From Deltaproteobacteria bacterium (lineage in GTDB: Bacteria > Desulfobacterota > Syntrophobacteria > BM002): DNA of 34,026 bases. The position numbers and the translations under genes are program-made. The first letter of the stretch is position 1, and every line of letters begins with the position of its first letter. A model generated the notes under the pieces. It was not told where the DNA came from. It saw only the letters and a list, made by a program, of their open reading frames with translations, and did no database searches. Positions 7,598-24,673 of the stretch are shown here, piece by piece. Location: NCBI GenBank assembly GCA_020350905.1, contig CP070843.1:1074584-1108609 (forward strand). Direction: 5' to 3'.

Positions 7598-7618
7598 AGA
7601 TATGAGATGTGAGATACA
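7598..7618. repeat. Heptamer tandem repeat AGATRTG x3
   Basis: agatatg agatgtg agataca, followed by an A8 run. Lies in the leader/promoter region of the 6715-7563 gene. Confidence 0.6.
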
Positions 7619-7832: not shown

Positions 7833-7878
7833 AATGACAGCGCAGCGTAGTGACCTAATGACGCCGAAGGCTAGTGAC
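7833..7878. repeat. GTCAT/ATGAC-box mosaic element, half copy A
   Basis: Two 24-nt units, aATGAC-N10-aGTGAC-NN: aatgacagcgcagcgtagtgacct and aatgacgccgaaggctagtgaccc. Its reverse complement shares gtcactagccttc with copy B. Confidence 0.75.
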
Positions 7879-7926
7879 CCACATCGCCTTACGCCCTGTG
7901 CCCTAAGCCTTGCACCTCTCCTCATT

Positions 7927-7968
7927 CCGCAATCCGCAATCCGCAATCCCAAATCCCCTCATCCCACA
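7927..7968. repeat. Heptamer tandem repeat CCGCAAT x3 plus degenerate units
   Basis: ccgcaat ccgcaat ccgcaat cccaaat cccctca tcccaca. It sits immediately 3' of the M55 peptidase stop on the minus strand. Confidence 0.75.
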
Positions 7969-7980
7969 TCGACTATCCAT

Positions 7981-8913
7981 TCATCTTCTCCGCTTGCTCT
8001 GCGGTAAATATTTGTCTTTCTTGAGCCTTCGGCGTGCCCAGGCCAGGCCGAGCCGGCCAGTCAGGTTATACAAAAATAGCCCGAATGGAAGAATCCTCAC
8101 CGTTAGAGGTGTGAGATAACAGAGCCTGATGAGATCTCTGTAGAGTTCATGGATGCCATCAGCCTCAATGAAAATTCGAGCACCCTCGTGGTCAAAGCCC
8201 CACCTTCGCGCAAGGTTTTGGGCTGTGATTTCGCCACCCCGCCAGGTCACTTCTGCCTGAAAGGGACCATGCGGAGTATATGGCTCCGTTGCCCCGTTGT
8301 TGAGGGAGTGCAGCGCAGCGCTCACTAGGCCGGACCGCCATGATTCGACATCAAACAGTTCAGGACCGGCAGACTTGTCAATTGGATAAGAATCTATTTT
8401 CCTGATTGCAGCTCTTGCCTGTGCACAGGCAGTGGGGCAGCCCGAAAAGAAGATGGGTCTTAACCCATAAGGTGCCAGCGATGCCGAAAAAAGCTCAACC
8501 TCGGCCAGCGGCTTTCTATTCACCTCTAGCCAGCTTATGCGTGAGGTAAGGGTATGAGCCATGAACCCCTCAGTACCTGAAGCAGCATGCAGGCCCAGAA
8601 ACATGACGGCCTGTGCGTTGCCCGGATCTCCTATGCCAGGTGCCGGTCCGCGCTTGTAGCCCAAGACAACCTGAGCTCTCGGATCGATCAGTTCCGAGAG
8701 AAGATTGTAGCCGGTTCGGTGGAAGTCCTTCACTGTGACATGCTTAACACCCGCATCAAGAAGGGCCCTGACCACAGCGTTGACATCCAAGCTCATTTCA
8801 ACACAAGCTTGGCTCCACTCATCGGTCATAAATGATGAGGCTCGATAGTCCCAGCAGCCCGAACTTCCCTCGATGTCGGCGATTATGAGGATATTGTCGA
8901 AGTCAGTTGACAT
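7981..8913 (-). CDS. M55-family (DppA-like) D-aminopeptidase
   Basis: The N-terminus ILIIADIEGSSGCW matches the DppA/M55 DMEG(I/V)xG metal-binding start. The length (310 aa) is compatible with the family. Confidence 0.8.
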   Translation of the reverse strand: MSTDFDNILIIADIEGSSGCWDYRASSFMTDEWSQACVEMSLDVNAVVRALLDAGVKHVTVKDFHRTGYNLLSELIDPRAQVVLGYKRGPAPGIGDPGNAQAVMFLGLHAASGTEGFMAHTLTSRISWLEVNRKPLAEVELFSASLAPYGLRPIFFSGCPTACAQARAAIRKIDSYPIDKSAGPELFDVESWRSGLVSAALHSLNNGATEPYTPHGPFQAEVTWRGGEITAQNLARRWGFDHEGARIFIEADGIHELYRDLIRLCYLTPLTVRILPFGLFLYNLTGRLGLAWARRRLKKDKYLPQSKRRR

Positions 8914-8957
8914 ATTTTCTCGTTGGTCATGTAGATCTTTGATTATTTTACCATCAG

Positions 8958-9074
8958 GTCACTAGCCTTCACTGTCATTACGCAGCGTTGTCAAGCATGG
9001 TAATCTATTGTAACGATCGAATGACAGCCGCAAGGCATAGTGATGGCGTAGCCAAGTGACGCGAAGCATATGAC
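8958..9074. repeat. GTCAT/ATGAC-box mosaic element, copy B
   Basis: Left half: GTCAC 8958, GTCAT 8974, GTCAA 8990. Right half: ATGAC 9021, GTGAT 9039, GTGAC 9056, ATGAC 9070. Small hairpin ggc-gta-gcc between boxes. cgaatgacag is shared with copy A. Confidence 0.75.
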
Positions 9075-9099
9075 TAATCGGTGCCTACCTCAAAGGTAG

Positions 9100-10047
9100 T
9101 CAAATAACGAAGACCATCTTCCCTCGGGTACGCGAGGACTCACTGAGTTCATGGGCTCTTCTGGCTTCTTCTAGGCCAAAAGGAAAAACCTGGGAGAGGC
9201 GAGTCTTAAGGCGTCCTTGCTCTACCATCCGGGCCAGTTCAGTTAATTGGGTACTGTTGGGGGCCACGAAAACAAACTCTTTATCTATATCCTTTCTTAT
9301 TAATCCAGTGGGATCATCCACAATTGATATGAGTCGTCCCCCTTTGTTGACAATATCAGCACTTTTTTCGAGAACTTCTCCGCCCACACAATCAAAAACT
9401 ACGTCCACGCCATCTGGGTACTCTGAGCGGACCGAGTTGCGGAAGTCCACGTGGTTGTAGTCCACTACCTGGGTCGCCCCCAGGTCTTGTACATATTCTT
9501 CGTTGCGACCACTAGCCGTTCCCCACACCACAGCCCCATGATCTTTTGCCAACTGTACCCCGAAGCCTCCCACTCCTCCTGCCGCAGCATGGATTAAAAC
9601 GGTTTCTCCCGGGTTGATTTTAGCAGCATCAAATAGAGACTGGTAAGCAGTTAGTGCAGCAAGTGGAATTGAGGCAGCCTCTTCAAAGGAGATATTTTTC
9701 GGCTTTATAGCCGCATGTTCTTCTTCCAGCACAATGTATTCTGCGTATGCACCTCCCTGAACCATGGGTTTGCGGCAGTAAGCAAAAATCTCATCTCCCT
9801 GTCTAAAACGTGTCACCGCTGGACCGGCCTGTTCCACAATTCCCGCCGCGTCCCAACCCAGGATGATTGGAAACTCGTATGGAAAGAGATCTTTTATATA
9901 TCCTTCCCGGATCTTCCAGTCCACTGGATTGATCCCGGCCGCTTTCACCCTAACAAGAATTTCTCCTGGCTTGATCTCAGGTACGGGTAGATTCATGAGT
10001 TGCAATGTATCTCGGCCGCCGAACTCATTTATTGCTATGGCTTTCAT
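9100..10047 (-). CDS. NADPH:quinone oxidoreductase / zinc-type alcohol dehydrogenase superfamily (MDR) protein
   Basis: GroES-like N-terminal domain plus the Rossmann motif AAAGGVGGFGVQLAK. AAGGAGG Shine-Dalgarno 7 nt upstream of the ATG at 10047 (MKAIAINEF). The track ORF extends 7 codons further, to 10068. Confidence 0.92.
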   Translation of the reverse strand: MKAIAINEFGGRDTLQLMNLPVPEIKPGEILVRVKAAGINPVDWKIREGYIKDLFPYEFPIILGWDAAGIVEQAGPAVTRFRQGDEIFAYCRKPMVQGGAYAEYIVLEEEHAAIKPKNISFEEAASIPLAALTAYQSLFDAAKINPGETVLIHAAAGGVGGFGVQLAKDHGAVVWGTASGRNEEYVQDLGATQVVDYNHVDFRNSVRSEYPDGVDVVFDCVGGEVLEKSADIVNKGGRLISIVDDPTGLIRKDIDKEFVFVAPNSTQLTELARMVEQGRLKTRLSQVFPFGLEEARRAHELSESSRTRGKMVFVI

Positions 10048-10193
10048 ATGCAAGCCTCCTTTTCCCACAAGACAGTTTGCTGAGTATGTTGTATTCTTTA
10101 GCCTGGATAATTCAGTAATACTTGATAACTTGCAGCTCGTATAGATTTATCTCTGATAAGCATTCACAGGAGGTCAGTCAAACTACAGCCCGC

Positions 10194-10242
10194 TAACGGT
10201 ATGGCGGTACGGGCTGGTGAACCATTCGTACGGCTACCGTTA
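10194..10242. promoter_or_regulatory. Stem-loop/palindrome abutting the RBS of the cyclodeaminase-like gene
   Basis: taacggta (10194-10201) pairs with taccgtta (10235-10242) perfectly. The inner pair is gtacg (10207-10211) with cgtac (10227-10231). It ends 2 nt before GGTGGAGG. Confidence 0.4.
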
Positions 10243-10259
10243 AGGTGGAGGTGCTGATT

Positions 10260-10856
10260 ATGAGCGACTCGTTTCTGGAAGCCATTGCCAGACCAGAGCC
10301 TGTGCCGGGTGGTGGTGCAGCAGCAGCCCATGGAGCCTGTGTGGGGTTGGCGCTTCTCGAGAAAATTGTCCTGGTTGAACTGCGGCGCAGTGATATTCCT
10401 TCTGAGTCTCGCTGGCAGAATTTGCACGAAGAGGTGAGAAGATCATCGTCCACCCTCCTCCAACTTCGTGATGAAGACGGCGAGGCATACGTGCGTTTTG
10501 CCCGGGCGAAGACATTCGGAAAGAGTGCTGATGTAATTCTCGAACCGCTGAAGCAAGCAATCGAATGTCCCATAAAGATTATGGAAGAAGCCCATAAAGG
10601 GTTGCGCCTGGTGGCCAGGGCGGCAAAACACTGCAAGGGTCATCTCCTTGCAGACCTGCTGGTGGTCTGCGAACTTCTCCAAGCTGCGATCCATGGAACC
10701 TATGGGATAGCTCAGGCAAATCTAGCTGTAATGCGGGACCCCGCCCTCCACAGTCGCTATCAAAATAAGCTAGACCAGGTTCAAGGAGAAAGCCGCGAAC
10801 TCTTCAGATCTGTGGAGAGAGACATATTGGCAAGAGCGAAAATCAGTAAGGAATAA
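10260..10856 (+). CDS. cyclodeaminase/cyclohydrolase family protein (FTCD C-terminal-like)
   Basis: The N-terminal PEPVPGGGAAAAHGACVGLAL matches the P-x-PGGGS/AAAA signature of formiminotetrahydrofolate cyclodeaminase-like proteins. The ATG at 10260 follows GGTGGAGG. An alternative GTG lies at 10245. Confidence 0.85.
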   Translation: MSDSFLEAIARPEPVPGGGAAAAHGACVGLALLEKIVLVELRRSDIPSESRWQNLHEEVRRSSSTLLQLRDEDGEAYVRFARAKTFGKSADVILEPLKQAIECPIKIMEEAHKGLRLVARAAKHCKGHLLADLLVVCELLQAAIHGTYGIAQANLAVMRDPALHSRYQNKLDQVQGESRELFRSVERDILARAKISKE

Positions 10857-10900
10857 GCGGTGAGCAGTACTGGCGGAATAGAAATTCCAGATGACAAAGA

Positions 10901-10986
10901 CTGAGGTTTCAGGTTTCAGTTTTTTTGTTTTTCTTCCCTGACACCTGACATCTGAGACCTGACACCCGACACCTGAAACCCTGAGA
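10901..10986. repeat. Palindromically arranged heptamer arrays (GGTTTCA / CTGACAC) between convergent genes
   Basis: Left: ctgaggt ttcaggt ttcag, then T7GT5. Right: ctgacac ctgacat ctgagac ctgacac ccgacac ctgaaac cctgaga (10938-10986). The left array is the reverse complement of the CTGAAAC-type units. Confidence 0.75.
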
Positions 10987-11064
10987 TTTCTCCTTCGGAG
11001 TCCCCACCCTCTGGGCGGGGCCCCGGTTTGGTGCTTGGAATTGGATATTTTTCAGTGCTCTATA

Positions 11065-11910
11065 TTACTCTATCTCACGTCGCACAGCGTCTTCGGGGGC
11101 CGTTTCGGATTGCGCACGGCCTTTGCCTGTGCGCACGCCTATGAGCACCAGAAACTTACGGCGAATCTCACGCAGCGGCTTGCCGATGCGGCGGCCGAAC
11201 CGGATAGTCCAAGGCCGATATCTCTCCAGATCGAGCTGTTCAGGGTTGAGCAGATCCGGCCGACAGTCTCTGTAGTGTTTGAGCACATGGTAGTCGTCCA
11301 TGTCCTGCAAAAGGCGAAGTAGTACTCGCATCGGCCAACCATTGCCCGGCCACCAACCCGGCAGGTTGAGGCTGATCTGGAAGTCTATCAGGTAAGGCTT
11401 GGCATCATCCCCGACAATGATATTCTGGCGTTTGCTGAGGTCAACGTAGGCAAGGTCGCGCGCATGCATATCCTCGATCAATTGCTGGAGTATCGGAAAA
11501 AAAGTATCATTGACCGGCTCGCGTCTCTCCAAGGGATGGCCGGCCACATAGTCGTGCGTAACAGCGTGTGTCTGGCTTACGCCATTGATCGTCAGGTCGC
11601 CGCTGTAGGCGGGGATGTTAGGTAAGTCGTTCAACCGTTGCAGCATACGGGTCTCACGTCGCCCCAGCCTCCTGCCCAACCACTTCATCGGCAGCCCAAA
11701 AACCGATTGCTGACGGTTGAACTTGGCGACAACCATGCCTCGCGGACCTTGGTACAGCGCAGTGGCCGCCCACGAATCGTGCTTCAGAATGTCAACCCTA
11801 CGATAGGAATGGTTGTCAATCTCGACCTGCTCCGGGGGATCGGCTTTGCCTAAAGCGCGAAACACTCTTGGCCTCGGTTGAGCCGTTTGGGCAGGCTCCC
11901 GGTTTTGCAT
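11065..11910 (-). CDS. atypical protein-kinase-like protein (Kdo/WaaP/RIO-like fold)
   Basis: HARDLAYVDLSKRQNIIVGDDAKPYLIDFQIS resembles a kinase catalytic loop followed by a DFG-like LIDF. I picked the ATG at 11910 (MQNREP...). A TTG at 11925 is also possible. It lies 44 nt downstream of the PP2C gene's stop. Confidence 0.7.
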   Translation of the reverse strand: MQNREPAQTAQPRPRVFRALGKADPPEQVEIDNHSYRRVDILKHDSWAATALYQGPRGMVVAKFNRQQSVFGLPMKWLGRRLGRRETRMLQRLNDLPNIPAYSGDLTINGVSQTHAVTHDYVAGHPLERREPVNDTFFPILQQLIEDMHARDLAYVDLSKRQNIIVGDDAKPYLIDFQISLNLPGWWPGNGWPMRVLLRLLQDMDDYHVLKHYRDCRPDLLNPEQLDLERYRPWTIRFGRRIGKPLREIRRKFLVLIGVRTGKGRAQSETAPEDAVRREIE

Positions 11911-11954
11911 GGAGAATACCCCCAATCCGTATCGGTCAAGTCGCTCTTGGTAGC

Positions 11955-14087
11955 TTACAGTAGCACCTTAATCACCACAATTGTGATGTCGTCTTCTTGC
12001 TCTCTGCCCCCACGAAAGTCGCTGACTTCCTCAAGCACAGCGTCTTGAATGGCTCCAGCGGAGTTGTGATGGTTATTACGGATGATTTGGGAAAGACGGT
12101 CTTTACCGAACATCTCTCCCTCTCCGTTGTGGGTCTCCCAGATACCGTCCGTACCGATGAGAATAATTGTCCCGTCCGTTTCGATGGTCTTTTCAACATG
12201 TTCGTAACAATAGTCTTCCTCCACCCCTAAGACCATTCCTGGCCCCATGAGCTCTTCCAGGGTCTCAGTGGCGGGATCGTAGAGGAAGGCTGGATCGTGT
12301 CCGGCTCTGACCCAACTGATTACGCGTGAGTCCTCCTCTATCATAAGAAAGAACAGGCTTATGAACCTGCCGCTATCTCTCACATCAACGGAGAGAAGAC
12401 TGTTGACTTGAGTGAGACTCTCGGCCAGATTTTCCGGTCTCGTCACCAGCCCCCTTATGAGCCCCCTGGCTGTGGCCATGAGCAAAGCGGCCCCAACTCC
12501 ATGGCCCGTGACGTCGCCCACCACAATGCCATAGCGGGCGCAGTCTTCATCCTCACAGGGGAAAAAGTCAAAGTAGTCCCCACCAGTCTCGTCGCAGTAG
12601 ACGCTCTTGGCAGCAATATCAAAGCCGCGTAAGTTTGGTATCTCCTGGGGCAGGAGATTTTGTTGCACTTCCTTGGCCACTTCCAGAGACTTACGGATTA
12701 GTATTCTGTCTTCGAGCTGCGGAACCATTTCATTGAAGGTCTTCGCCAGCAGATCGCGTTCATCGCCTGTTTTTATGTTGATTCGTGCAGAGAAATCGCC
12801 CTTTGCCAGACGCTTGACCGCCTCAACCATGACGAAGAGAGGCCTGATCATGGCGTGGGCGAACCACAGACCGGCCAACATAAGCAAGAGAATCACTCCA
12901 ATGGCAACAACCCCGGTAATCAGCCACTGTTCTTTAACCATTGAATGTAACGATTCTCGTACCCGTTCAAACTGCTCCAAAATAATCCTTTTGGGTACGA
13001 TGAGTATAAGATTCAAGTCGTCACCGGCGTGACCATAGGCCCAGACAGAATCCACACCGAAATAAGGCATGTCGATGTAGCCGGCTTGTCTGGCTTTGAT
13101 TTCTCCTTCCAACAATTCCATGCTCTCAACATCTGAAGATGCGAGTCGTTCCACCCCCATCGCGCCGCTCCAGGCAGCGGCATTCTCCACATAGTCTTTT
13201 TGAGCTATTATCCAGAGGCCGTACTCACCGGTCTCTTCTTTTACCCCTGACCAGACAAGGAAAGAGCGCATGGCAGTTGACCACTGAGAAGATAATTCAT
13301 GAACCTGTAAAACCTCTGAAAGAAGCACGTCAATGGCGGCTACTCCTGCAAATGAACCGTCAGAGTGACGGATGGGCATAGAGGCAGTCATGATGACCTG
13401 ACGTGTAGAGACATCTATGTACGGGGTGCTCCAGGCCAACTCACCCTTTTCTCTGGCCAAGATATACGATGGACGAGTTTGTGGGTTGTACGTGGAAGGA
13501 TAGCCGCCGTGGCCGGGATAAGCTGCGTGAACGCCGCTCTCCAGGCTGACATACTGCCAATAGAGGATGTCGCCCAATTGGTTCTCAAACTCACTGTGCA
13601 CAGGAAGAAGTCTTCTCAGGCGACCAATGTCAGTTGCTACATACCGCCAGTCAGCTCCCGGTAGAACCAAAAAGACCTGATGACCGAAGCTCACAACCAT
13701 TGGTTCAGTTCCATCCCCAGCAGCACCTCTGATATGCTTGTGAGAAAATACGATATCTTTAGGAGCCTTGGTGGGGTTGTCGTAGTCATCAGCAAAATAG
13801 ACCTTAGCAGCGCCCTTCGGCGGTTCGGACAAAAAGCGCTCCGCATCTCTGGCAATGATTCTCAGTGTGAGTTCCAGCACTTCTTTTTCACGGCCAAGTA
13901 TCTTGGCATAGTCCGTTGCTGTTTGCTTGAGTTCTCTGCTGACGATTTCGGTCCGGTTCTTTTTTGCCAAACCGGATATGGTTTCACCCATTCGTACAAT
14001 TCCCCGTTGACCTACTAAAGTAACAACGAGAAGAGGCGCAAGACTGAAGGTCATAAAGAATATAAGGAATTTCCAGCGAACGCTCAT
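11955..14087 (-). CDS. Cache-HAMP-PP2C (SpoIIE-family) sensor protein phosphatase
   Basis: TM1 (FLIFFMTFSLAPLLVVTLVG), a periplasmic domain of about 340 aa (Cache-like), TM2, HAMP (RPLFVMVEAVKRLAKGDFSARI...FNEMVPQLEDR), then PP2C/SpoIIE motifs (GGDYFDFF, GDVTGHGVGAALLMA, GTDGIWE, EDDITIVVIKV). The ATG at 14087 is preceded by GGAGATGG. The track's 21-codon extension to 14150 runs into the repeat element. Confidence 0.92.
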   Translation of the reverse strand: MSVRWKFLIFFMTFSLAPLLVVTLVGQRGIVRMGETISGLAKKNRTEIVSRELKQTATDYAKILGREKEVLELTLRIIARDAERFLSEPPKGAAKVYFADDYDNPTKAPKDIVFSHKHIRGAAGDGTEPMVVSFGHQVFLVLPGADWRYVATDIGRLRRLLPVHSEFENQLGDILYWQYVSLESGVHAAYPGHGGYPSTYNPQTRPSYILAREKGELAWSTPYIDVSTRQVIMTASMPIRHSDGSFAGVAAIDVLLSEVLQVHELSSQWSTAMRSFLVWSGVKEETGEYGLWIIAQKDYVENAAAWSGAMGVERLASSDVESMELLEGEIKARQAGYIDMPYFGVDSVWAYGHAGDDLNLILIVPKRIILEQFERVRESLHSMVKEQWLITGVVAIGVILLLMLAGLWFAHAMIRPLFVMVEAVKRLAKGDFSARINIKTGDERDLLAKTFNEMVPQLEDRILIRKSLEVAKEVQQNLLPQEIPNLRGFDIAAKSVYCDETGGDYFDFFPCEDEDCARYGIVVGDVTGHGVGAALLMATARGLIRGLVTRPENLAESLTQVNSLLSVDVRDSGRFISLFFLMIEEDSRVISWVRAGHDPAFLYDPATETLEELMGPGMVLGVEEDYCYEHVEKTIETDGTIILIGTDGIWETHNGEGEMFGKDRLSQIIRNNHHNSAGAIQDAVLEEVSDFRGGREQEDDITIVVIKVLL

Positions 14088-14145
14088 AGGCCATCTCCGA
14101 TGATGGTGCAAGGGGCAGGGCAAAGTAGGCACTAGGAGCCTACAA

Positions 14146-14309
14146 GTCATTACATTTCGCCCAAGCGCGCTTCATTGTCACTTGGGCTGGCGCCCGTCAT
14201 TTATGGTCATTTGTGGTTATTTGCCAATTCATCATCACTAATCATAACGACCTAATGACAACAAATGACAGCGAAGCGTAGTGACGGCCACATCTAGTGG
14301 CCAAATGAC
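14146..14309. repeat. GTCAT/ATGAC-box mosaic element, copy C
   Basis: GTCAT-type boxes at 14146, 14177, 14196 and 14206. ATGAC-type boxes at 14255, 14265, 14281 and 14305. Hairpin GGCCAC-atcta-GTGGCC at 14286-14302. Shares an exact 25-mer with copy E and exact 27- and 22-mers, inverted, with copy F. Confidence 0.85.
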
Positions 14310-14324
14310 TATAAGAGAACGCAG

Positions 14325-14364
14325 AGGATATTCATAGTTAAAAACATTGTTAGACTGCCTGCTT
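14325..14364. repeat. Inverted-repeat arm flanking fabH (3' side of the gene)
   Basis: aggatattcat-N16-agactgcctgctt. It is the reverse complement of 15436-15475 at both conserved ends (11/11 and 13/13), with the same 16-nt spacer length. It ends 8 nt from the fabH stop. Confidence 0.8.
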
Positions 14365-14371
14365 TATCGCT

Positions 14372-15376
14372 CTACCAATGAAGCAGCGAGGCTGCCCAGG
14401 TGAAACCAGCCCCAAAGGCAGTCAGAAGTACGAGATCGTTTTCCTTTAATTTCCCTAGTTTCAGAGCCTCATGCATACAAATGGGTATGGTGGCGGCTGT
14501 GGTGTTACCGGTCCAGGCGATGGTGTTTACCACCTTTTCTTCAGGGATGCCCAACTGGGACGCCACCATTTGATTGATGCGCATGTTGGCCTGATGGGGC
14601 AAGAGCAAATCCAGCTCCGCCACTGCTTTACCAGCTTCTGACAAGACCTGGTGGCTCACTTCAACCATGCGGGTGATCGCATGTTTGAATACCATCCGTC
14701 CGTTCATTTGCGGGTAGTGCCTGCCTTGATCGAGGCTTTCGTGCGAAATCCTTGGGTGGTGTGCGCTGGCAGGATACTCTGTCCACAGTTCCTTTGCGTA
14801 CTTTCCCTCTGCATGCAGAGCGCTTGCCAGTATGCCTGGGTGGCCATCGGGGGCCGGGCCCACCACCGCTGCTCCTGCTCCGTCACCGAACAATACTGAC
14901 ACGTCTCGGCCGCTGAAGGTAAAATCTAGAGCCGTGGAGTGAATCTCCGAGCCGACAATGAGGATACGTTCATACTGGCCACTTTTTATCAAACTATCAG
15001 CCATGGCAAGGCTGTATATAAAACCCGAGCATTGATTACGGACATCCAAAGCACCGATAGTTCTGCCACCGAAGAGCCTATCTTGCAAGAAGCAGCCATT
15101 GCCAGGAAAGAAATAGTCCGGGCTTAAGGTGGCATATATGACGAAGTCGATATCATCAGGGCTGAGCCCGGCATTGTCGATAGCTTCTCTTGAGGCGTGT
15201 ACTGCAAGGTCAGTGCCGGTTTCCCCCTCTGAAACAAAGCGCCGGGTCAGGATTCCAGTTCGTTGCCTGATCCATTCGTCAGAGGTTTCCAGTTCCTCGA
15301 TGGCTTCGAGTTCTTGGTTTGTAACTTCTCGCTCCGGCAAATACATACCCACGCCGAGAATTCTTGTTTGTCTCAT
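14372..15376 (-). CDS. fabH: 3-oxoacyl-ACP synthase III (KAS III, FabH-like)
   Basis: Catalytic Cys in RNQCSGFIYSL, His in LLPHQAN, Asn in TGNTTAATIP, and C-terminal GAGFTWAA. GGGGAGGA Shine-Dalgarno 7 nt upstream. It is an orphan gene, with no other fab genes nearby. Confidence 0.92.
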   Translation of the reverse strand: MRQTRILGVGMYLPEREVTNQELEAIEELETSDEWIRQRTGILTRRFVSEGETGTDLAVHASREAIDNAGLSPDDIDFVIYATLSPDYFFPGNGCFLQDRLFGGRTIGALDVRNQCSGFIYSLAMADSLIKSGQYERILIVGSEIHSTALDFTFSGRDVSVLFGDGAGAAVVGPAPDGHPGILASALHAEGKYAKELWTEYPASAHHPRISHESLDQGRHYPQMNGRMVFKHAITRMVEVSHQVLSEAGKAVAELDLLLPHQANMRINQMVASQLGIPEEKVVNTIAWTGNTTAATIPICMHEALKLGKLKENDLVLLTAFGAGFTWAASLLHW

Positions 15377-15435
15377 AGAAATCCTCCCCGGTATGCAGGG
15401 ACACCCTGATAATTAACCACATACACCGCATGGCG

Positions 15436-15475
15436 AAGCAGGCAGTCTGACGACCTACTATACGATGAATATCCT
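15436..15475. repeat. Inverted-repeat arm flanking fabH (5' side of the gene)
   Basis: aagcaggcagtct-N16-atgaatatcct, the partner of 14325-14364. It starts 60 nt upstream of the fabH start codon. Confidence 0.8.
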
Positions 15476-15494
15476 TGGAGTTAGCTCATAGTTA

Positions 15495-15696
15495 TTTGGC
15501 CACTGCAAGTGGCCGTCAATACGCTACGCTGTCATTATGCCTTCGGCATCATTTATGGTCATCAGGTAATGCACTACGCTGTCATTCATCGTTAACTGTA
15601 ATTGTGGCGTTAAACCAACTTAATGACGGCCGTAAGGCCGTATGACGGGCGTTAGCCCAACTGACAACGGAGCGCGCAAGCGCGAAGTGTAATGAC
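15495..15696. repeat. GTCAT/ATGAC-box mosaic element, copy D
   Basis: Left: tttGGCCACtgcaaGTGGCC, then GTCAA, GTCATT, GTCAT, GTCATT, with ctacgctgtcatt repeated at 15524-15536 and 15574-15586. Right: ATGAC-GGCCgtaaGGCC, ATGAC-GGGCgttaGCCC-aacTGAC, and ATGAC at 15692-15696. Confidence 0.85.
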
Positions 15697-15756
15697 TGCT
15701 AGTACCCAGCTGATTAGGCGCCAATCACCTTTAGATGCACACCATTGCCGCACCAT

Positions 15757-16566
15757 CTAAAGTAACGTCAAAATAAACACGGTCATCTCCTCGACAACCC
15801 TGTCTGTAGCCTCTTTATGAGGTATATGAGCGCAGTCTGGAATAAGGAGAGACGTGGCGGGGCCCGCTACTCGACGTGCTATGGCCTCCACCTGAGCCTC
15901 AGTACCGTACTGATCGTCTTCGCCTTGTATCGCCAGAACCGGGCACGTGACCCTTGGTAGGCAATCCTCAATATTCCAATGTTTGAATTCGAGGGACAGC
16001 CAGGTCTCACACCATGCCCTAAAAATCGCTTCGGTGTTACTATCGTGATAACGTGCCAGCTTTTCTTTGAGGTCTGTGGTCTGGTAGGCTTGCACGGCCT
16101 GTCTAATACCTTCCAGGGTGATCTCTTCCACGAAAACATGTGCAGCTTCGGTAATGAGCCCTCGGACCGATTCAGGATATTCTGCTGCAAAAATCAGGGC
16201 AATAGAGCCGCCATCGCTGTGGCCAATGAGGATGGTGTCGTCTACGCCAGAATTCTTGAGAACCTCGGGTAGGGTGTCCAAAGCCTCATCATGAACATAT
16301 CTGAGTGTTCTTTGGACATCGATGGGATCAGATTTGCCATGTCCCCAGCGGTCATACACCAAACCGTTACAGCCAGTTTCCTCTAACAGGACTTCAGGGA
16401 AGGCATGCCACATTTCAATAGAACCCAAGCCCTCGTGGAGAAAAACAAGAGTGGGACGGTCGTCCTGCCCATCGTTCTCCGGCTGGGTAAGCTTCCTCAC
16501 TCGGAGCTTGTGGCCCGCGGCATGAATGAAGAAATCCTCTTTCAGCAAACTACCTTTGGTACTCAT
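15757..16566 (-). CDS. alpha/beta hydrolase
   Basis: HEGLGS oxyanion region, nucleophile elbow GHSDGG, and C-terminal GEDD and CAHIPH. I chose the ATG at 16566 (MSTKGSLL). The track's 26-codon N-terminal extension to 16644 is encoded by repeat copy E. Confidence 0.86.
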   Translation of the reverse strand: MSTKGSLLKEDFFIHAAGHKLRVRKLTQPENDGQDDRPTLVFLHEGLGSIEMWHAFPEVLLEETGCNGLVYDRWGHGKSDPIDVQRTLRYVHDEALDTLPEVLKNSGVDDTILIGHSDGGSIALIFAAEYPESVRGLITEAAHVFVEEITLEGIRQAVQAYQTTDLKEKLARYHDSNTEAIFRAWCETWLSLEFKHWNIEDCLPRVTCPVLAIQGEDDQYGTEAQVEAIARRVAGPATSLLIPDCAHIPHKEATDRVVEEMTVFILTLL

Positions 16567-16605
16567 ATGGGTCTCTAGCTTTTTCAAGCGGAGGAGTAAG
16601 CAAAG

Positions 16606-16775
16606 GTCATAACACTTCGCGCCTCTTGGGCGCTTCGTTGTCACTTGGGCTGGCGCCCGTCATTACGCCTCGCGGCTGTCATTAAATTGTCTCAACTCTA
16701 AAATGACAATTAACTAACTAATGACAGCGGAGCGTAATGACAGCCACGTCAGTGGCTTGATGACTACCTAATGAC
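16606..16775. repeat. GTCAT/ATGAC-box mosaic element, copy E
   Basis: Collinear with copy C over the left ~60 nt, including the exact 25-mer at 16640-16664. Right half: ATGAC at 16703, 16721, 16737, 16761 and 16771. The last box overlaps the final codons and stop of the 16768-17745 gene. Confidence 0.85.
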
Positions 16776-17745
16776 CATGTGTTACTTTCTGCAAGAGCTC
16801 CCTATAGTACACATAATTCTCATAAGGTACATCGGCCCGGACCCGTCCGTCAGCCAAGGGCACATAGCCACCGTCGGCAACTAGTGGTGGCACCTTCTCT
16901 TCCACCTCCTGCCGAACTGCTTCCTTGTCCCGCCGGAGGGTGTCAAGATCTATCCCACCAATCAACCTTAAATTGCGGCCGAATTCTCGGCGGAGATCCC
17001 GATAGTCCATTGCTTCTATGTTAACTTCGCAAGCCCACAAACAATTGAATCCCCACTTGAGCATGCTCGGAATGAGGGCTCGAGCATTAGCATATGTCAC
17101 GAGAACTATAGTCTCTACTTTATATTTATGAAGGACGTCAAGAACTGGTTCATAGCTCCTAAGTACCATGTCTTCATACATGTGTGGCGATATGAGAGGG
17201 CCATAATTGCCGCCAATGGGCTCACTGAAAAGTGCTGCGTCCACAACGACATCCTTTAGTACCCGTTCCGCCAACCCGGCGGCAAATTCCCCCTGGATTG
17301 TCATGGCCTCACGGACAAATTCAGGATCATCAATAAGTAGATCCATTAGTTCTGAAAACCTGCGCCAGTCGTAAACACCCATAGACAGAAAAAAGCCCCG
17401 GTGGATTCTAAGCATGAGTGGATAGTCTCGGTTTTTCCAACTGCGGACTTTTTTTGCCCATCCCCTGGGCAAACGGCCCCGTCCATAGGGGACCAAACGT
17501 CGAAAGAGTTCCTTCAGGTCGGATCGCGATCTGGGCCATTTAGTGAATTTTGGCCGAGGCTCCAAGTCTACCTCGATCACCTCCCGCTGATCAGAGGGAA
17601 ACATCTGGGCAATATCAGCATCCTTTGGTAATCCCTGCTTGCGCCATTCCCTTAACACTTCTCTCCGGATGCCCTCCTCGAAATAGGGCACGCGGTCGGG
17701 GCTGCCGTAGCGCATTGTCTCAAGAAATCGTTCGCGACTATTCAT
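16768..17745 (-). CDS. uroporphyrinogen decarboxylase (URO-D) family protein (MtaA/CmuA-like)
   Basis: The N-terminus MNSRERFLETMRYGSPDRVPYFE is typical of URO-D-like/methylcobamide methyltransferase-like proteins. GAGAGAA Shine-Dalgarno upstream. Confidence 0.85.
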   Translation of the reverse strand: MNSRERFLETMRYGSPDRVPYFEEGIRREVLREWRKQGLPKDADIAQMFPSDQREVIEVDLEPRPKFTKWPRSRSDLKELFRRLVPYGRGRLPRGWAKKVRSWKNRDYPLMLRIHRGFFLSMGVYDWRRFSELMDLLIDDPEFVREAMTIQGEFAAGLAERVLKDVVVDAALFSEPIGGNYGPLISPHMYEDMVLRSYEPVLDVLHKYKVETIVLVTYANARALIPSMLKWGFNCLWACEVNIEAMDYRDLRREFGRNLRLIGGIDLDTLRRDKEAVRQEVEEKVPPLVADGGYVPLADGRVRADVPYENYVYYRELLQKVTHGH

Positions 17746-18036
17746 AGATCAATTCTCTCGCCCGCTCGATCTGCTCGCTAGAGCCCGCAGAGAACGCAGT
17801 AGAGAAAAGTGTGGGGATCACTTGTCACCGCCCGCAAAGCGGGCAGTCCCGATGCCACCGCATCTGGACAAGTGGGGAGCCCTTGATGGCCAGAATAAGC
17901 AAGCTTATTAGTGTCCATCAAGCACACCCCACTCAGCCTCCAAGCGATCCCTCCTCAATATATACCTTTACCTACATAACTTCATAGTTATTGAGCTCTC
18001 AGAGTTTCGTTGAGCTCTCTGAGTGATAGATTAACC

Positions 18037-19713: not shown

Positions 19714-19714
19714 G

Positions 19715-21367
19715 TTAGCTCCCCAACAGCTTCCCCGGATTCATGATATTATTGGGATCCATTTTGTTTTTCAGATGGGCAAGAAGTGACAAGCCCTCTG
19801 GGCCGAGATAAGAATCCAGCCAAATCTTGTGCATGCTGCCGATTCCATGGTGATGGCTCAGAGCCCCCCCGTGTTTCAGAATTGTCTCTGTGGCCGCCTC
19901 TTTAACAATCTGCCATTGCTCCAGTTCCTTCCCCACCTGCTGCTGAGCCATGAAGGTAAAATATAAAGAAGCGCCATCAGGATAGGCATGGGAAAGATGG
20001 GTAAACACCAGCGCGCCCGGCGCAGTATCGAGGATTGATTCAGATAGTGCTAGGCGCACCGCTTTATACAATTCTGGAAGTTTTTCCCAAGGGGCAGCAG
20101 TCTCCACAGTGTCCACCATCACGGAGCGGTCCAGCAAGTCATCTCGCAGATACGGGTGTCGAAAACGTTCTTTCATCCACTTTATGGCAGGGAGGCCGCC
20201 CAGCAGAACCCCATCTTTGGCATAGCGGCGTGTCTCCCGTTTCGTCACTAGAACGAGGTTGCGCGGCCCTTCAAAAATCAAAAGCAAGAGCGCGCTCTTT
20301 TCCAGGTTGAAACCCCGGAAACGTATGTACCATTGCCCCAAGAGTTCAGTAAATGATTGGCGCGGTGTCTTGCTCAGCCTCAGGGCCACTGCCGTTTCTT
20401 CTGGGTCGGCAAGCCGCAACACCGCAGGACGCAGGCCCGCCTGGAGCATATCTCGCACGGCACCTACTCCTGCAGAAAAGTCATGAAACAAATACGTAGC
20501 GAAGGCACGATGTTCTGGTATGGGATGGAGTCGAACTACTGCCTGAGTGATAATCCCCAGGGTACCCTCGGAGCCAATCAGGCATTGGAGCAGTGAGGGA
20601 CCTACCGCATCCGCCGGCACAGTGGGTAAATCCAAGATGCCGGTTGGTGTGATAATACGGAGGCTAACCACCATATGCTCTATTTTTCCATATTTGGTGG
20701 AGTTCTGACCGGCCGAGCGTGTGGCGATCCATCCGCCCAGGGTGGAAAACTCGAACGATTGAGGGTAATGGGCCAAGGTGAAGCCACTACCATTTAGTTC
20801 TCTCTCCAAGTCTGGTCCCAGAATACCGCTCTGGACCCGCGCGGTGTTGGACGCGCGATCAATCTCAAGAACACGGTTCAACCGCTGTAGATCAATGGTA
20901 AGGACTGGTTTGTCGACTGAAGGAGGCTCGACGCCTCCAACCACCGAAGTGCCGCCGCCAAAGGGCACGATAGTCCAACCTCGTTCCGAAGCGAATTCGA
21001 GCAGCGCTTTGATCTGTTTCTCGTTTTCGGGAAAAATCACAGCATCGGGTGCAGCTTCCACCCTACCGTGTCGGATTCTCAGCAGATCCAGATAAGATTT
21101 TCCCAGAGCATGAACGAGTCTATCCGAATTTTCAGTACTGACGGACTCATCACCACATATCTTTTTGAGCCGAGCAAGGTCTGATTGTGCCAGTCGGGCA
21201 GGTGGCACTGGTATGTCGTTGAGGGAGGAAACCCGTGGGGATTGTTGGAGTGGTCCTAGTTTGCTTTCGAGAAACGACCAAAAATAGTGTGGGTCGGCCA
21301 GAGCGTACCTCTCATTCTCTAGGCCCCAGCCCCACCATTTCATCTTTTCGGGGTTATCAAAAGACAT
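19715..21367 (-). CDS. FAD-linked oxidase, alkyl-dihydroxyacetone-phosphate synthase (AGPS)-like
   Basis: The N-terminal KWWGWGLENERY resembles the AGPS WNGWGY motif. The FAD-binding PCMH domain follows (IVPFGGGTSVVGG), then a C-terminal HHHGIG motif. Confidence 0.88.
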   Translation of the reverse strand: MSFDNPEKMKWWGWGLENERYALADPHYFWSFLESKLGPLQQSPRVSSLNDIPVPPARLAQSDLARLKKICGDESVSTENSDRLVHALGKSYLDLLRIRHGRVEAAPDAVIFPENEKQIKALLEFASERGWTIVPFGGGTSVVGGVEPPSVDKPVLTIDLQRLNRVLEIDRASNTARVQSGILGPDLERELNGSGFTLAHYPQSFEFSTLGGWIATRSAGQNSTKYGKIEHMVVSLRIITPTGILDLPTVPADAVGPSLLQCLIGSEGTLGIITQAVVRLHPIPEHRAFATYLFHDFSAGVGAVRDMLQAGLRPAVLRLADPEETAVALRLSKTPRQSFTELLGQWYIRFRGFNLEKSALLLLIFEGPRNLVLVTKRETRRYAKDGVLLGGLPAIKWMKERFRHPYLRDDLLDRSVMVDTVETAAPWEKLPELYKAVRLALSESILDTAPGALVFTHLSHAYPDGASLYFTFMAQQQVGKELEQWQIVKEAATETILKHGGALSHHHGIGSMHKIWLDSYLGPEGLSLLAHLKNKMDPNNIMNPGKLLGS

Positions 21368-21674
21368 AGAAGACCTGATTTATTTGCACCTGGTAGTTTT
21401 GCTGAGGACATGGAATGCTGGAATATTGGAGTAATGGAAATAGAACTCCCAGCCCAACATTGCTCTATTCATTACTCCTCCTTCCAACTTTTTCTCCTCA
21501 ATTTCTGCATTATTCCCAGCAGAGTCAAGCAGTTTTCGGCTTTGAGCTCAGAAAAGCGCCGTGAAAACAATATTTGTGGGAGAACCTTTCCCGCCCGCCT
21601 CGCCTGCGCGGCTCGTGATGGCGGGCAGGTAGCCTCGATAGAGCTGCCTGTAAAAAAAATCCTCCAAACATCGA

Positions 21675-21708
21675 CTATACTCCTAGCAATCGTTGTTCTA
21701 GGATATAG
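21675..21708. promoter_or_regulatory. Near-perfect palindrome upstream of tal (candidate operator)
   Basis: ctatactcctag-N11-ctaggatatag. The arms are complementary apart from one extra c. It ends 35 nt upstream of the tal ATG. Confidence 0.35.
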
Positions 21709-21743
21709 TTAGAAAATACACTTGCTTTCATTGGAGGATCAAA

Positions 21744-22868
21744 ATGACAAAATTGCATGAATTAGCTGAACTTGGTCAGGCAATCTGGCTCGACTACATA
21801 AGCCGTTCCCTTATTACGTCCGGCGAACTACAAAAACTGGTTGATCAGGGGCTGCGGGGGGTAACCTCCAATCCATCCATCTTTGAAAAAGCCATTGCTG
21901 GGAGTGCTGACTACGATGACGATTTGAATCGCCTCGCGAGTGATGGAAGATTGGTGGCAGAAATATATGAGGACCTGGCTATGGCCGACATCCGGAGCGC
22001 AGCCGACATATTGCGTTCGGTCTACGAAAAGAGTGAGGGTGCTGATGGCTTTGTGAGCCTCGAGGTAAATCCGGCGCTGGCTCACGACACCGAGGCTACC
22101 ATTGAGGAAGCACGTCGCCTCTTCGCTTCCCTGGAGCGACCGAACGTGATGATCAAGGTGCCGGCAACACCCGCCGGCCTACCAGCCATCGCGACCCTCA
22201 TCGGCGAGGGTGTAAGCGTCAACGTAACCTTGATCTTCTCGCTCGAGCAATACGAGGCTGTGGCCACGTCCTATATTGCCGGGTTGGAAAAGCTGGCATT
22301 AGCAGGCGGTGAGGTAGGCAGAGTGGCGTCCGTGGCTTCCTTTTTCATCAGCCGGGTTGATACCGCTGTGGATAAGGCTCTTGAAGAGATTGGTAATATT
22401 GAGATACAAGGCAAAATCGCCATTGATAATGCCAAAATTGCCTATGGTCGCTTCCGCGAAATCTTCAACTCCGAACGCTGGCAGGAGTTAGCCACTGAAA
22501 ACGCTCGGGTACAGCGCCCCCTGTGGGCAAGTACCAGCAGCAAGAATCCTGCTTACCCAGATACCCTCTATGTGGATAACCTCATTGGGCCTGACACGGT
22601 CAATACGCTGCCGCCGGCCACCCTGGATGATTTTCTGGATCATGGCACAGTAGCTACCACTGTGGAGACTGATGTTGATGGGGCTCACATGCGCATGGCT
22701 GAACTTGCCGAGCTTGGCATCGACCTGGACGGTATCACTAATAAGGTACTGGACGAGGGCGTTGCCGCCTTTGCAAAATCCTTTGAGGGGTTGATTGCCA
22801 GCATTGCTGAGAAACGTCAAGATTTGCTCGACGAGTTGCAGCAGGTGTCAACTAGCTCAGGTTCATAA
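21744..22868 (+). CDS. tal: transaldolase
   Basis: GQAIWLDYISR...GVTSNPSIFEKAI, and the Schiff-base lysine context VMIKVPAT. GGAGGA Shine-Dalgarno 6 nt upstream. Confidence 0.94.
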   Translation: MTKLHELAELGQAIWLDYISRSLITSGELQKLVDQGLRGVTSNPSIFEKAIAGSADYDDDLNRLASDGRLVAEIYEDLAMADIRSAADILRSVYEKSEGADGFVSLEVNPALAHDTEATIEEARRLFASLERPNVMIKVPATPAGLPAIATLIGEGVSVNVTLIFSLEQYEAVATSYIAGLEKLALAGGEVGRVASVASFFISRVDTAVDKALEEIGNIEIQGKIAIDNAKIAYGRFREIFNSERWQELATENARVQRPLWASTSSKNPAYPDTLYVDNLIGPDTVNTLPPATLDDFLDHGTVATTVETDVDGAHMRMAELAELGIDLDGITNKVLDEGVAAFAKSFEGLIASIAEKRQDLLDELQQVSTSSGS

Positions 22869-22996
22869 GAGGTTACGTGGGCTCGTGTCCCACTTTTAAT
22901 CTCTTTGCCTCTTGAACTTCTGGTCGAAAGTCTTAATTTTGCTACAATACAGATGGTGTACATACAAGAATAATTCCACTGGAAAGGGACAATCTT

Positions 22997-24454
22997 ATGG
23001 CGGAATATGATTTCGATATAGGCGTTATCGGCGGGGGAGCAGCGGGGCTGACCGTAACAGCAGGAGCAGCTCAGGCTGGAGCCAAAACTCTTCTCATTGA
23101 AAAAGAAAAAAAACTTGGAGGAGACTGCCTTCATTATGGTTGCGTGCCGAGCAAAACCCTTATCAGAACGGCTCACGTTTACCATCTGATGAGAAACTCC
23201 AGGGAGTTTGGGCTTCCAGGTGTTGACCTGCCGCCTGTTGATTATCGGGAAGTGGCAATGAGAATTCAATCGGTCATCAGCACCATTCAAGAACACGATT
23301 CTGAGGAAAGATTCTGTAAGCTCGGGGCTAAAGTTGAATTCGGCGAGGCCACCTTTGTGGATGAACACTCCATTCGGTTAAACGGAAAGACCATTAGTGC
23401 AAAGAATTGGGTGCTGTCCACGGGCTCGTCCCCTGGTATCCCTTCCATAGAAGGGCTTGATAAGACCCCTTACATCACCAACAAAGAAATCTGGTCCCTC
23501 GATCATTTGCCGAAATCTTTGATCATCCTTGGTGCCGGCCCCATAGCCATGGAAATGGCACAAGCATTCAATCGTCTTGGTTCAAAAGTAACTGTGGTTC
23601 AGCGCAGCAATCAGATCTTGAGCAAAGAAGACAAAGACATGGCTGACACAGTCATGGAGGTTTTACACTCCGAGGGGGTAACATTCTATCTCAACTCTTC
23701 AGTGATGAGTGTGCGGGACCTAGGGAGTGAGAGAGAGGTGGTTGTAAAGAGTGGTGCTAAGAATACGACTGAGCTCAGGGGAGAAAAGATCCTGGTCGCC
23801 ATGGGTCGAGAGGCCAATGTGACAGGTTTAGGTTTAGAAGGTTTGGGCATAGATTGCACTGGGAAAGGCATCCAGGTGGACAACCGCTTGAGGACAAAAC
23901 AGAAGCACATTTATGCAGCAGGAGATGTCACCGGCCAATATCAATTTACCCACGCTGCCGGTTATGAGGGAGGCATTGTCTTCACCAATGCTATTTTTCG
24001 TCTTCCCAGAAAAGTAGATTACACTTTTCTGCCGTGGTGTACATATACGGACCCTGAGCTCGCCAGCATTGGTATGAATGAAAAAGCGGCAGAAGCTGCC
24101 GGAATCGAGTACGTCGTATGGACCGAGGAGTTCAAAGGTAACGACAGAAGTCTGGCGGAGGGCGAGAGAGTCGGCAAGATCAAGATGATTCTGGACGAAA
24201 AAGAGAAGCCCATAGGTGTACAAATACTGGGGCCTCAGGCAGGAGAACTGCTCAGTGAATGGGTGGCGGTATTAAACGGAAAGATGAAGCTCTCCACCCT
24301 GGCTTCTGCCGTACATCCCTATCCGACTCTCGGTGAGATCAACAAGAGGGTCGCAGGAAATTTTTTCTCACCCAAAATCTTCTCAGAGAGGGTAAAGAAA
24401 GGATTGAAGTTCTTCTTCAATTTGAAGGGAAGGGCCTGCGGAGACGACGCATAG
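22997..24454 (+). CDS. FAD-dependent pyridine nucleotide-disulfide oxidoreductase (dihydrolipoyl dehydrogenase/mercuric-reductase-like)
   Basis: GVIGGGAAG FAD motif, redox-active GGDCLHYGCVPSK (C-x4-C), a second Rossmann motif LGAGPIAME, and a C-terminal dimerisation domain with HPYPTLGE. Confidence 0.92.
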   Translation: MAEYDFDIGVIGGGAAGLTVTAGAAQAGAKTLLIEKEKKLGGDCLHYGCVPSKTLIRTAHVYHLMRNSREFGLPGVDLPPVDYREVAMRIQSVISTIQEHDSEERFCKLGAKVEFGEATFVDEHSIRLNGKTISAKNWVLSTGSSPGIPSIEGLDKTPYITNKEIWSLDHLPKSLIILGAGPIAMEMAQAFNRLGSKVTVVQRSNQILSKEDKDMADTVMEVLHSEGVTFYLNSSVMSVRDLGSEREVVVKSGAKNTTELRGEKILVAMGREANVTGLGLEGLGIDCTGKGIQVDNRLRTKQKHIYAAGDVTGQYQFTHAAGYEGGIVFTNAIFRLPRKVDYTFLPWCTYTDPELASIGMNEKAAEAAGIEYVVWTEEFKGNDRSLAEGERVGKIKMILDEKEKPIGVQILGPQAGELLSEWVAVLNGKMKLSTLASAVHPYPTLGEINKRVAGNFFSPKIFSERVKKGLKFFFNLKGRACGDDA

Positions 24455-24523
24455 AGCGAAGAGCATGGCGCATGGCGTTTCAAGGGTGTCATGTTAATAA
24501 GCTCGACTGCCATTCGTAGCCAA

Positions 24524-24673
24524 TTGGCCACGAACGTGGCCGTCATTATGCTTCGCTGTCATTTGTTGTCATTAGGTTTTTATCATGCTGGACCATTAAC
24601 GACGCCAACGGAAAATGACCATAAATGACGGGCGACAGCCCAAATGACTCAATGACGGCGCAGCCCAAGTGAC
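24524..24673. repeat. GTCAT/ATGAC-box mosaic element, copy F (inverted relative to copy C)
   Basis: ttGGCCACgaacGTGGCC-GTCATT-atgcttcgct-GTCATT-tgtt-GTCATT ... ATGAC-cataa-ATGAC-GGGCgacaGCCC-aaATGAC-tca-ATGAC-GGCgcaGCC-caaGTGAC. The 27-mer at 24550-24576 is the reverse complement of 14251-14277. The 22-mer at 24613-24634 is the reverse complement of 14191-14212. Confidence 0.85.

Follow-up and report, generated by a model that had tools for sequence, protein, structure and literature searches.

A 34,026-nucleotide stretch of the genome of a Deltaproteobacteria bacterium of the BM002 lineage (contig CP070843.1, positions 1,074,584 to 1,108,609; the whole stretch is called the window here, and position 1 is its first letter) contains six elements, designated copies A to F, that are built of GTCAT boxes and of their complement, ATGAC. 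What are these elements, and to what larger group do they belong? A first-pass annotation, made from the sequence alone, had compared them with repetitive extragenic palindromic (REP) sequences, bacterial interspersed mosaic elements (BIMEs) and MITEs (miniature inverted-repeat transposable elements) and had recognized no described family. We found that in other genomes the same boxes flank a small gene of the PF05635 family. We consider it rather likely that the six elements are gene-less members of this cassette family, with arms that are putative cognate sites of the PF05635 protein.

Box elements in the window and in other genomes

All coordinates and exact matches recorded for the six copies proved correct on re-check. 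These included a 25-mer that is identical at 14177-14201 and 16640-16664, a 27-mer at 14251-14277 that is the exact reverse complement of 24550-24576, and a 22-mer at 14191-14212 that is the exact reverse complement of 24613-24634. Four mini-hairpins were located where they had been placed (14286-14302, 15628-15639, 15647-15658 and 7863-7871), and two additional shared words, tcatagttatt (15486-15496 and 17982-17992) and gagaacgcag (14315-14324 and 17790-17799), were exact. Runs of at least four GTCA or TGAC boxes on the same strand occurred 10 times in the window, compared to 0.28 expected and a maximum of 2 in 200 shuffles. A 22-nt module, designated M1 (AATGACAGCGNAGCRTANTGAC), occurred five times, compared to 0.00 expected, and a repeat search of the window independently recovered the family together with its direct and inverted relations.

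The family was not confined to the window. In a collection of species-representative genomes, at least 119 stretches, from other genomes of several phyla, contained M1; by our own estimate approximately 4-9 matches would arise by chance over the whole collection. Genomes with multiple copies of M1 included several metagenome-assembled genomes (MAGs) of Desulfobacterota (ALJrbin.32, ALJrbin.12, MFD09779.bin.3.209, bin617, BM002 and Syntrophobacterales bins) and, outside this phylum, the isolates Fibrella aquatica, F. forsythiae and F. arboris as well as Nitrospinia OFTM173. The grammar of the M1 contexts was uniform across genomes, and blastn matched the elements to dozens of loci in other genomes at 80-94% identity. 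The nearest relative of the window, a Desulfobacteraceae MAG (locus L093), was syntenic with positions 8504-16336 at 69-81% nucleotide identity. Copies B and C were absent from its orthologous spacers. Copy D was present, with a central indel of ~45 nt, and was 85% identical compared to 75-79% for the flanking genes. The family thus extends well beyond one region and undergoes turnover, with presence/absence polymorphism between related genomes.

No catalogued family accounted for the elements. At the gathering threshold, nothing in the window matched an Rfam family, and a search of positions 7600-17000 at E<=5 was likewise negative for the elements. The repeat family was described nowhere in the literature searched, and a search with sequence words returned only primers and short hairpin RNAs. 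Thus, the initial view of mosaic, REP/BIME- or MITE-like elements of an undescribed family was supported, since neither a catalogue match nor similarity restricted to the window was found.

We then read the spacers between successive TGAC boxes across 120 sequences. Their lengths peaked at 4, 6-7, 12, 19-20 and 26-27 nt, and most spacers ended in AA; therefore, the box is NAATGAC. The repeat unit is this box, which may be directly followed by a small G+C hairpin whose loop is of the C(GNA)G or GNNA type, and the longer spacers were composed of a hairpin plus 3 nt. Among 362 distinct hairpin-bearing spacers, the stem began 0 nt after TGAC in 229 and stopped exactly 3 nt short of the next TGAC box in 165. 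A perfect 3-bp stem was present in 53% of 97 distinct non-M1 spacers of 12 nt, compared to 14.6% (maximum 23.7%) in a partner-shuffled control, and these stems covaried (GGC..GCC, 27; GCC..GGC, 18). GNA loops (GAA, GCA and GTA) were dominant, GNNA tetraloops were also observed, and many arrays were free of hairpins and contained boxes alone. Among gene-less elements, a GTCA run was followed by a TGAC run in 42 cases and the reverse order was seen in 6; 66 of 76 such elements were flanked by co-directional genes. Units were shuffled, gained and lost among copies, giving the mosaic appearance, and the window copies had mixed periods of 8, 10, 16 and 26 nt with embedded hairpins.

M1 itself was tandemly iterated in two loci, in Mucilaginibacter terrigena (L040, 3557-3640) and downstream of the PF05635 gene described below (L113). 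Here, AATGACAGCGAAGCG was repeated and accompanied by decayed copies such as AATAACAGCGTAGCA; therefore, single modules can amplify in place.

The predicted fold of an element was a stem composed chiefly of box-to-box pairs, with side hairpins. Compared to shuffled sequences, copy C had a z score of -4.5 as RNA and -3.75 as DNA, and copy D had a z score of -2.75 as RNA. Classical terminators and sigma-70 promoters were rejected as explanations: promoter-like sites were not above the level of shuffles, and the few mini-hairpins that scored as weak terminator-like sites were on the strand opposite the local genes.

A four-helix-bundle gene between the arms

Clustering of open reading frames (ORFs) across the M1 loci yielded mostly families that were large and ordinary, plus a syntenic PilZ set, and exposed a small protein in four loci. 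This protein of ~120 aa matched PF05635 (23S_rRNA_IVP, E about 1e-26) and TIGR02436 (four helix bundle protein), and its sole solved relative was Xanthomonas campestris XCC0516 (PDB 2GSC, E 8e-8), which is a homopentamer. In a Nitrospinia (L050), a Deltaproteobacteria (L085) and a Bacteroidetes (L113) locus, the gene lay exactly between M1-containing GTCATT and AATGAC arms. We refer to this PF05635 subfamily as SF1.

A sample that was independent of the repeat gave the same picture. From metagenome contigs, 80 loci were collected by protein pattern only, 72 of which had both full flanks. In these 72 loci, the 150 nt upstream of the gene contained on average 4.29 GTCA and 0.61 TGAC, and the 150 nt downstream contained 3.82 TGAC and 0.33 GTCA; at a distance of 500 nt from the gene, the background was ~0.8 for both words together. 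At least three boxes were present on one side in 90% of the loci and on both sides in 56%. The last GTCA box preceded the start codon by ~42 nt, and the first TGAC box adjoined or provided the stop codon (median distance 0 nt), either as TAATGAC or as aaTGAc. Moreover, many SF1 proteins had C-terminal tails that were translated AATGAC arrays, ending in NDSEANDGEAQ, INDKEINDN or LNDSEANDGEAQ before the stop (L191, L149, L144, L217; L140-L219); therefore, growth of the array alters the tail of the protein. The M1 core was found directly downstream of the gene in sense orientation in 10 of the 80 loci and upstream in antisense orientation in 2, whereas none occurred in the wrong orientation and none in the remaining 139 kb of these loci. 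Some SF1 arrays had the form (GTCATTG)n (L143), which we take to equal the unit TTGGTCA of STRR2, a short tandemly repeated repetitive (STRR) sequence.

The gene was co-oriented with its upstream neighbour in 57 of 62 cases and with its downstream neighbour in 58 of 65. The SF1 protein showed remarkably little variation between phyla and recurred within genomes. More than 4400 homologues of it were detected at E<=1e-20, and the best 120 of these, which were 71-100% identical, had names from Cloacimonadota, Bacteroidota, Marinimicrobia, Verrucomicrobia and Proteobacteria. A single 124-aa protein (P0083) was present, in identical form, in at least six different gene contexts (L130-L139), with arrays of an 11-nt unit that ranged from ~4 to >20 units. 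Judged by such distributions, the SF1 gene behaves as a mobile, horizontally transferred gene. Carriage on plasmids or phages was not detected at the thresholds used, and a link to defence systems was dismissed, as PADLOC gave no match. In the P0083 loci, one upstream gene was joined to differing downstream genes across assemblies, a pattern suggestive of misassembly or recombination caused by the repeats.

Two more distant PF05635 genes were found among the loci, and their flanking repeats were different. SF2 had 7992 homologues, in Lentisphaerae, Patescibacteria, Acidobacteria, Verrucomicrobia and Desulfobacterota, and of its 7 contexts, 6 had CGATTGC-type heptamers upstream of the gene and 4 had GCAATCG-type heptamers downstream. 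SF3 had 2222 homologues that matched PF22296 (bAvd) as well as PF05635, and the three contexts read had GCAGTAR upstream and YTACTGC downstream. The box type follows the protein subfamily, on a smaller sample for SF2 and SF3. A scan of viral contigs returned 3 loci for SF2 and 0 for SF3. Among the sites occupied by SF2 genes (L226-L231; L234) were the interval that separates hsdR from the N6 methylase gene in a type I restriction system and the position immediately behind a PhdYeFM/PIN toxin-antitoxin pair.

What the elements may be and how they may spread

We infer the following for binding, RNase III processing and the mode of spread. A full-length cassette would comprise a GTCATT-box array, a leader of ~40 nt, a PF05635 gene of ~120 aa and an AATGAC-box array that begins at the stop codon; PF05635 is the family of the 23S rRNA intervening sequence (IVS) protein S23p and of Avd of diversity-generating retroelements. 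The boxes are probably cis sites of the multimeric four-helix-bundle protein, which probably recognizes them in single-stranded form, on RNA or on single-stranded DNA (ssDNA). Arms and protein would thus form a pair comparable to REP/BIME repeats and their transposase RAYT. On single strands the mini-hairpins would fold out and leave the boxes at a uniform spacing of 3-4 nt; a single-stranded substrate is suggested because these fold-out hairpins are precisely placed and widely differing box spacings are tolerated. Elements that lie between co-directional genes would be co-transcribed, and their two arms could then pair into a branched stem, as in rRNA intervening sequences, which RNase III removes. 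The cassette, together with far more numerous gene-less copies that would be non-autonomous and MITE- or REP-like, may have spread within genomes and between phyla.

One of the closest known systems is the S23p-bearing IVS of 23S rRNA (Leptospira, Coxiella and Xanthomonas type), which has been called selfish and has terminal inverted repeats, excision by RNase III and variable tandem heptamers (GACAGAT) before the ORF (PMC4990558). It shares with the present family the protein family PF05635, an ORF between complementary arms, a variable number of short tandem repeats before this ORF and a sporadic spread that suggests horizontal transfer. Because of this published precedent, an RNA-level stem and RNase III processing are plausible for copies whose arms pair well (PMC4990558). 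The ORF between the arms is found in the full-length relatives but not in the six ORF-less window copies. The rRNA elements sit in helices 9, 25 or 45, whereas those described here lie between protein-coding genes and no rRNA is present in the window; in addition, the former have one unique 28-bp stem, whereas the latter have modular arms of boxes and mini-hairpins and an excess of gene-less copies. In the literature searched, S23p IVSs were described only within 23S rRNA (PMC4990558), PF05635 otherwise appeared just as Avd-like or as an annotation (PMC10053308, PMC8700078), and the pairing of a PF05635 gene with box arms was not described.

A second relative by protein fold is Avd. The four-helix-bundle fold is homologous, and SF3 also matched PF22296. 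However, neither a reverse transcriptase nor a pair of template and variable repeats was found beside the cassettes examined (by Pfam of the neighbours), which were surrounded by ordinary operon genes. Avd itself is pentameric and basic, and its binding partners are nucleic acid and reverse transcriptase.

Several observations weigh against the cassette interpretation. No PF05635 gene is present in the window, and only 4 of the 119 loci sampled by element contained one, so that action in trans has to be assumed. Approximately 10% of the gene loci had no clear arrays, and a few were reversed or one-sided (L158, L167, L214 and L147). The half-copy leader CTACCTATTACAACA, typical of elements such as copy A, was never found next to four-helix-bundle genes. 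To our knowledge, the four-helix bundle is not a fold of transposases or recombinases, and neither a target-site duplication nor a clean junction between empty and filled sites was found. The arms were often complementary at the boxes only, so that for many copies a long, perfect stem for RNase III is hard to assume; this pattern fits recognition by a protein better than selection for a long duplex. Finally, the evidence for SF2 and SF3 comes from few independent contexts (~7 and ~3), several of which are one-sided.

The alternative that survives best, which we nevertheless regard as unlikely, is that the arrays are landing pads: they would be maintained by the host or expand by themselves, four-helix-bundle genes would insert preferentially into their centres, and the window elements would never have been cassettes and would be independent of the protein. 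Such arrays could be, for example, mRNA stabilizers, RNase III sites or slippage-prone STRR-like repeats. The vast excess of gene-less over gene-bearing arrays fits this view, as does the hypervariable array length, which slippage predicts, and in L158 and L167 the gene lies beside or inside a complete palindrome. It also has a parallel in the heptamer repeats of Xanthomonas and Nostoc (PMC4692102). In general, known intergenic heptamer repeats (cyanobacterial STRRs, GGGGAYT in Nostoc and GGGAATC in Xanthomonas, PMC4692102; TAACTGA in Beggiatoaceae, PMC4679880) are likewise short tandem units between aligned ORFs, commonly occur as inverted pairs, vary in copy number and have a patchy distribution that resembles horizontal transfer. 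No link to a gene was reported for these arrays (PMC4692102, PMC4679880), and the window copies differ from them in having mixed periods and embedded hairpins. Against landing pads, the array itself makes up the gene's stop codon and C-terminal tail, and three subfamilies, each with its own box, would need three matching insertion specificities. In addition, the presence of the same boxes and M1 with a 71-100% identical protein across phyla is more readily understood if the gene moves with its arms.

It is still less probable, and in our view quite improbable, that the elements are REP/BIME repeats mobilized by a REP-associated tyrosine transposase (RAYT, a Y1 HUH enzyme) that is encoded elsewhere, with TGAC as the tetranucleotide beside the hairpin and an incidental link to PF05635. 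REPs, BIMEs and REPINs are extragenic, occur in high copy number, form mosaics of hairpin units in both orientations and have a cognate gene that is flanked by inverted repeats and far outnumbered by gene-less repeats. The present elements are also extragenic and mosaic with alternating orientations, and have a short hairpin directly beside a fixed tetranucleotide. Hairpins of the d(GCGAAGC) type, with C(GNA)G loops, are exceptionally stable in ssDNA, and such loops would suit a single-strand transposition intermediate; a separate REP-like hairpin (CTGTAGGAGCAAGCTTCGCTTGCGA) is also present in these genomes. However, the gene that occupies the hallmark position of RAYT, between inverted arms, was PF05635 in 65 of 72 loci. 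The cognate RAYT or other Y1 transposase that the first-pass annotation suggested looking for was not found by phmmer in ~0.8 Mb around the 119 copies, a weak test given the query sequences used. The units also differ: REPs are imperfect palindromes, 20-40 nt long, in which a 5' GTAG is conserved, whereas the present unit is NAATGAC, and the hairpin that may accompany it spans 9-17 nt. GTAG is not conserved here, as M1 reads GTAG, GTAA, GTAT or GTAC, and many arrays contain boxes without hairpins. REPs are typically lineage-specific, in contrast to the near-identical modules found here in different phyla.

Like MITEs, the window elements are short, non-coding and dispersed between genes, have inverted arms and presence/absence polymorphism, and may have arisen by deletion from an element that carried a gene. 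However, no parent with a DDE or other known transposase was found, the candidate parent carries PF05635 only, and no target-site duplication was seen at the ends, which consist of tandem arrays that vary in length. Integron attC sites (R''-L''...L'-R' with a GTTRRRY core) were ruled out, since the boxes are GTCAT/ATGAC and no integrase was present among the scanned window ORFs. Local duplication, low complexity or chance similarity confined to the region, for which the inverted repeat around a FabH-like gene (14310-14364 and 15436-15494) could be cited, is refuted by the excess of box runs over shuffles and by the foreign loci that contain M1 or match by blastn.

On the cassette interpretation, the window elements would belong to IVS/S23p-type selfish elements with REP/MITE-like gene-less copies, and there is a substantial chance that the pairing of protein and box constitutes a separate, new class. 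A broader proposal, which we put forward tentatively and hold to be possible rather than probable, is that PF05635 proteins and their subfamily-specific box arrays form a very widespread, unrecognized class of selfish cassette. Its trans factor would be a small multimeric protein instead of a classical transposase, and this protein would recognize the arms as single strands. Decay or independent spread of the arms might then have produced many intergenic arrays, including STRR-like, GGGAATC-like and TGAC-box arrays and the six elements.

Anatomy of the window copies and neighbouring repeats

Features of the elements and associated arrays are listed in Table 1. All six copies were intergenic, and each was flanked by co-directional genes. 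The gene neighbourhood was that of ordinary chromosomal, housekeeping genes: an RND efflux system, M55 peptidase, ADH, SpoIIE-type phosphatase, FabH-like KAS III, alpha/beta hydrolases, GlpD, transaldolase and 6PGDH.

Table 1. Box elements and associated repeats in the window (window positions).
Feature	Position	Strand	Description
Copy A	7815..7878	+	Half copy: leader CTACCTATTACAACG and four TGAC boxes; box array AATGAC-AGCGCAGCGT-AGTGAC-CT-AATGAC-GCCGAAGGC-TAGTGAC
Copy B	8958..9074	.	GTCA arm 8958-8993, TGAC arm 9021-9074; between M55 peptidase and ADH genes
Copy C	14146..14309	+	Full polar element; GTCA arm 14146-14209, centre, TGAC arm 14256-14309
Extension of copy C past its boxes	14310..14364	.	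Inverted repeat with 15436-15494, bracketing the FabH-like gene (14372-15376)
Copy D	15495..15696	-	Full polar element, inverted relative to C
Copy E	16606..16775	+	Full polar element, oriented as C
Copy F	24524..24673	-	Full polar element, inverted relative to C; between Pyr_redox and 6PGDH genes
Tandem heptamer array directly after copy A	7926..7956	+	Perfect (TCCGCAA)x3, x3.4 by TRF, then TCCCAAA (TCCCAAATCC)
Inverted heptamer-array pair	10904..10980	.	(AGGTTTC)x2.9, T-rich gap, (CCTGACA)x6.3, by TRF; between FTCD_C gene and next gene

The order of the arms was GTCA and then TGAC in five of the six copies, and copy A consisted of the TGAC arm alone. The full copies had been described as long imperfect palindromes. 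Their arms are indeed inverted, but a simple palindrome is not an adequate description, since the copies are polar and have two unlike ends: one reads GTCAyTTGGGCT..CGCCCGTCATT and the other AGCGTAGTGAC-GGCCAC-N5-GTGGCC-AAATGAC. By this polarity, copies C and E point one way and copies D and F the opposite way. In copy C the TGAC arm includes M1 (14264-14285) and the GGCCAC-atcta-GTGGCC hairpin, and in copy B it includes the mini-hairpins GCCGCAAGGC, GGCGTAGCC and GCGAAGC.

Copy A was correctly recognized as a half copy, but the extent first given to it (7833-7878) was too short: the repeat is at least 64 nt long and may reach ~200 nt (~7744-7948). Its leader CTACCTATTACAACG (7818-7832) is conserved, and blastn matched the copy to more than 30 loci at 87-94% identity. 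Dozens of near-identical half copies of this kind occurred in Desulfobacterota MAG loci, where the form is very common. A remnant of the 3' end of a four-helix-bundle ORF was considered as the origin of CTACCTATTACAACA and received no support; the single loose match to the pattern (L145) was on the opposite strand with no box after it. Directly upstream of copy A, at 7781-7812, we observed a hairpin (CCTATAGGAGTAAGCTTCGCTTGCGATCTTAACGCTCCTACC) that resembles REP sequences of the Pseudomonas type, and close copies of it (CTGTAGGAGCAAGCTTCGCTTGCGA) were present in L007, L058, L069 and L096.

The inverted repeat formed by the extension of copy C and the flank of copy D extended ~55 nt beyond the boxes of both copies; the pair was 101 nt long and 79% complementary, with the words AGGATATTCAT and AGACTGCCTGCTT in common. 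The half on the side of copy D was retained in the syntenic L093, which lacks copy C. This suggests that copy C arose as an inverted copy of D plus the flank of D. A general terminal module beyond GTGGCC-AAATGAC (TATGAG..GGATATT..AGACTGCCTGCTT) was ruled out, as this sequence was confined to copies C and D, the L093 orthologue and, weakly, L091.

Two gene-less heptamer arrays also lie in the window. The box type of the array after copy A (GCAATC/CAAATC) is that of the SF2 downstream arm (GCAATCG/CAAAATC; L184, L220, L232 and L234). The pair at 10904-10980 contains TGAC boxes at a period of 7 in a two-arm architecture, and similar arrays were found in L001, L064 and L067. Unrelated to the box family, a 46-nt inverted repeat with 76% complementarity (CTCTCGCCCGCTC... 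and ...GAGCGGGCGAGAG) linked two intergenic regions 7.9 kb apart (17755-17800 and 25687-25732). At the end of an outer-membrane efflux gene, we observed a tandem 27-mer (AAGCGAAATGAAACCACGAAGAACACG, 85%, 1984-2037) and a 22-nt inverted repeat (1995-2016 and 2127-2148, 95% complementary), located within and shortly before the spacer to an HlyD-type gene.

The arrays matter for genome annotation, as they break assemblies, create spurious ORF extensions and variable C-terminal tails, and mark insertion points within operons. If the proposed pairing of protein and boxes is true, the role of S23p and of free-standing Avd-like proteins, which make up thousands of 90%-identity clusters (>4400, 7992 and 2222), would become testable. 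The same would hold for the origin and movement of rRNA intervening sequences and for the origin of the patchy, abundant intergenic short tandem arrays that are found in several phyla. A protein paired with its own cognate repeat would offer a concrete binding experiment and a genome census.

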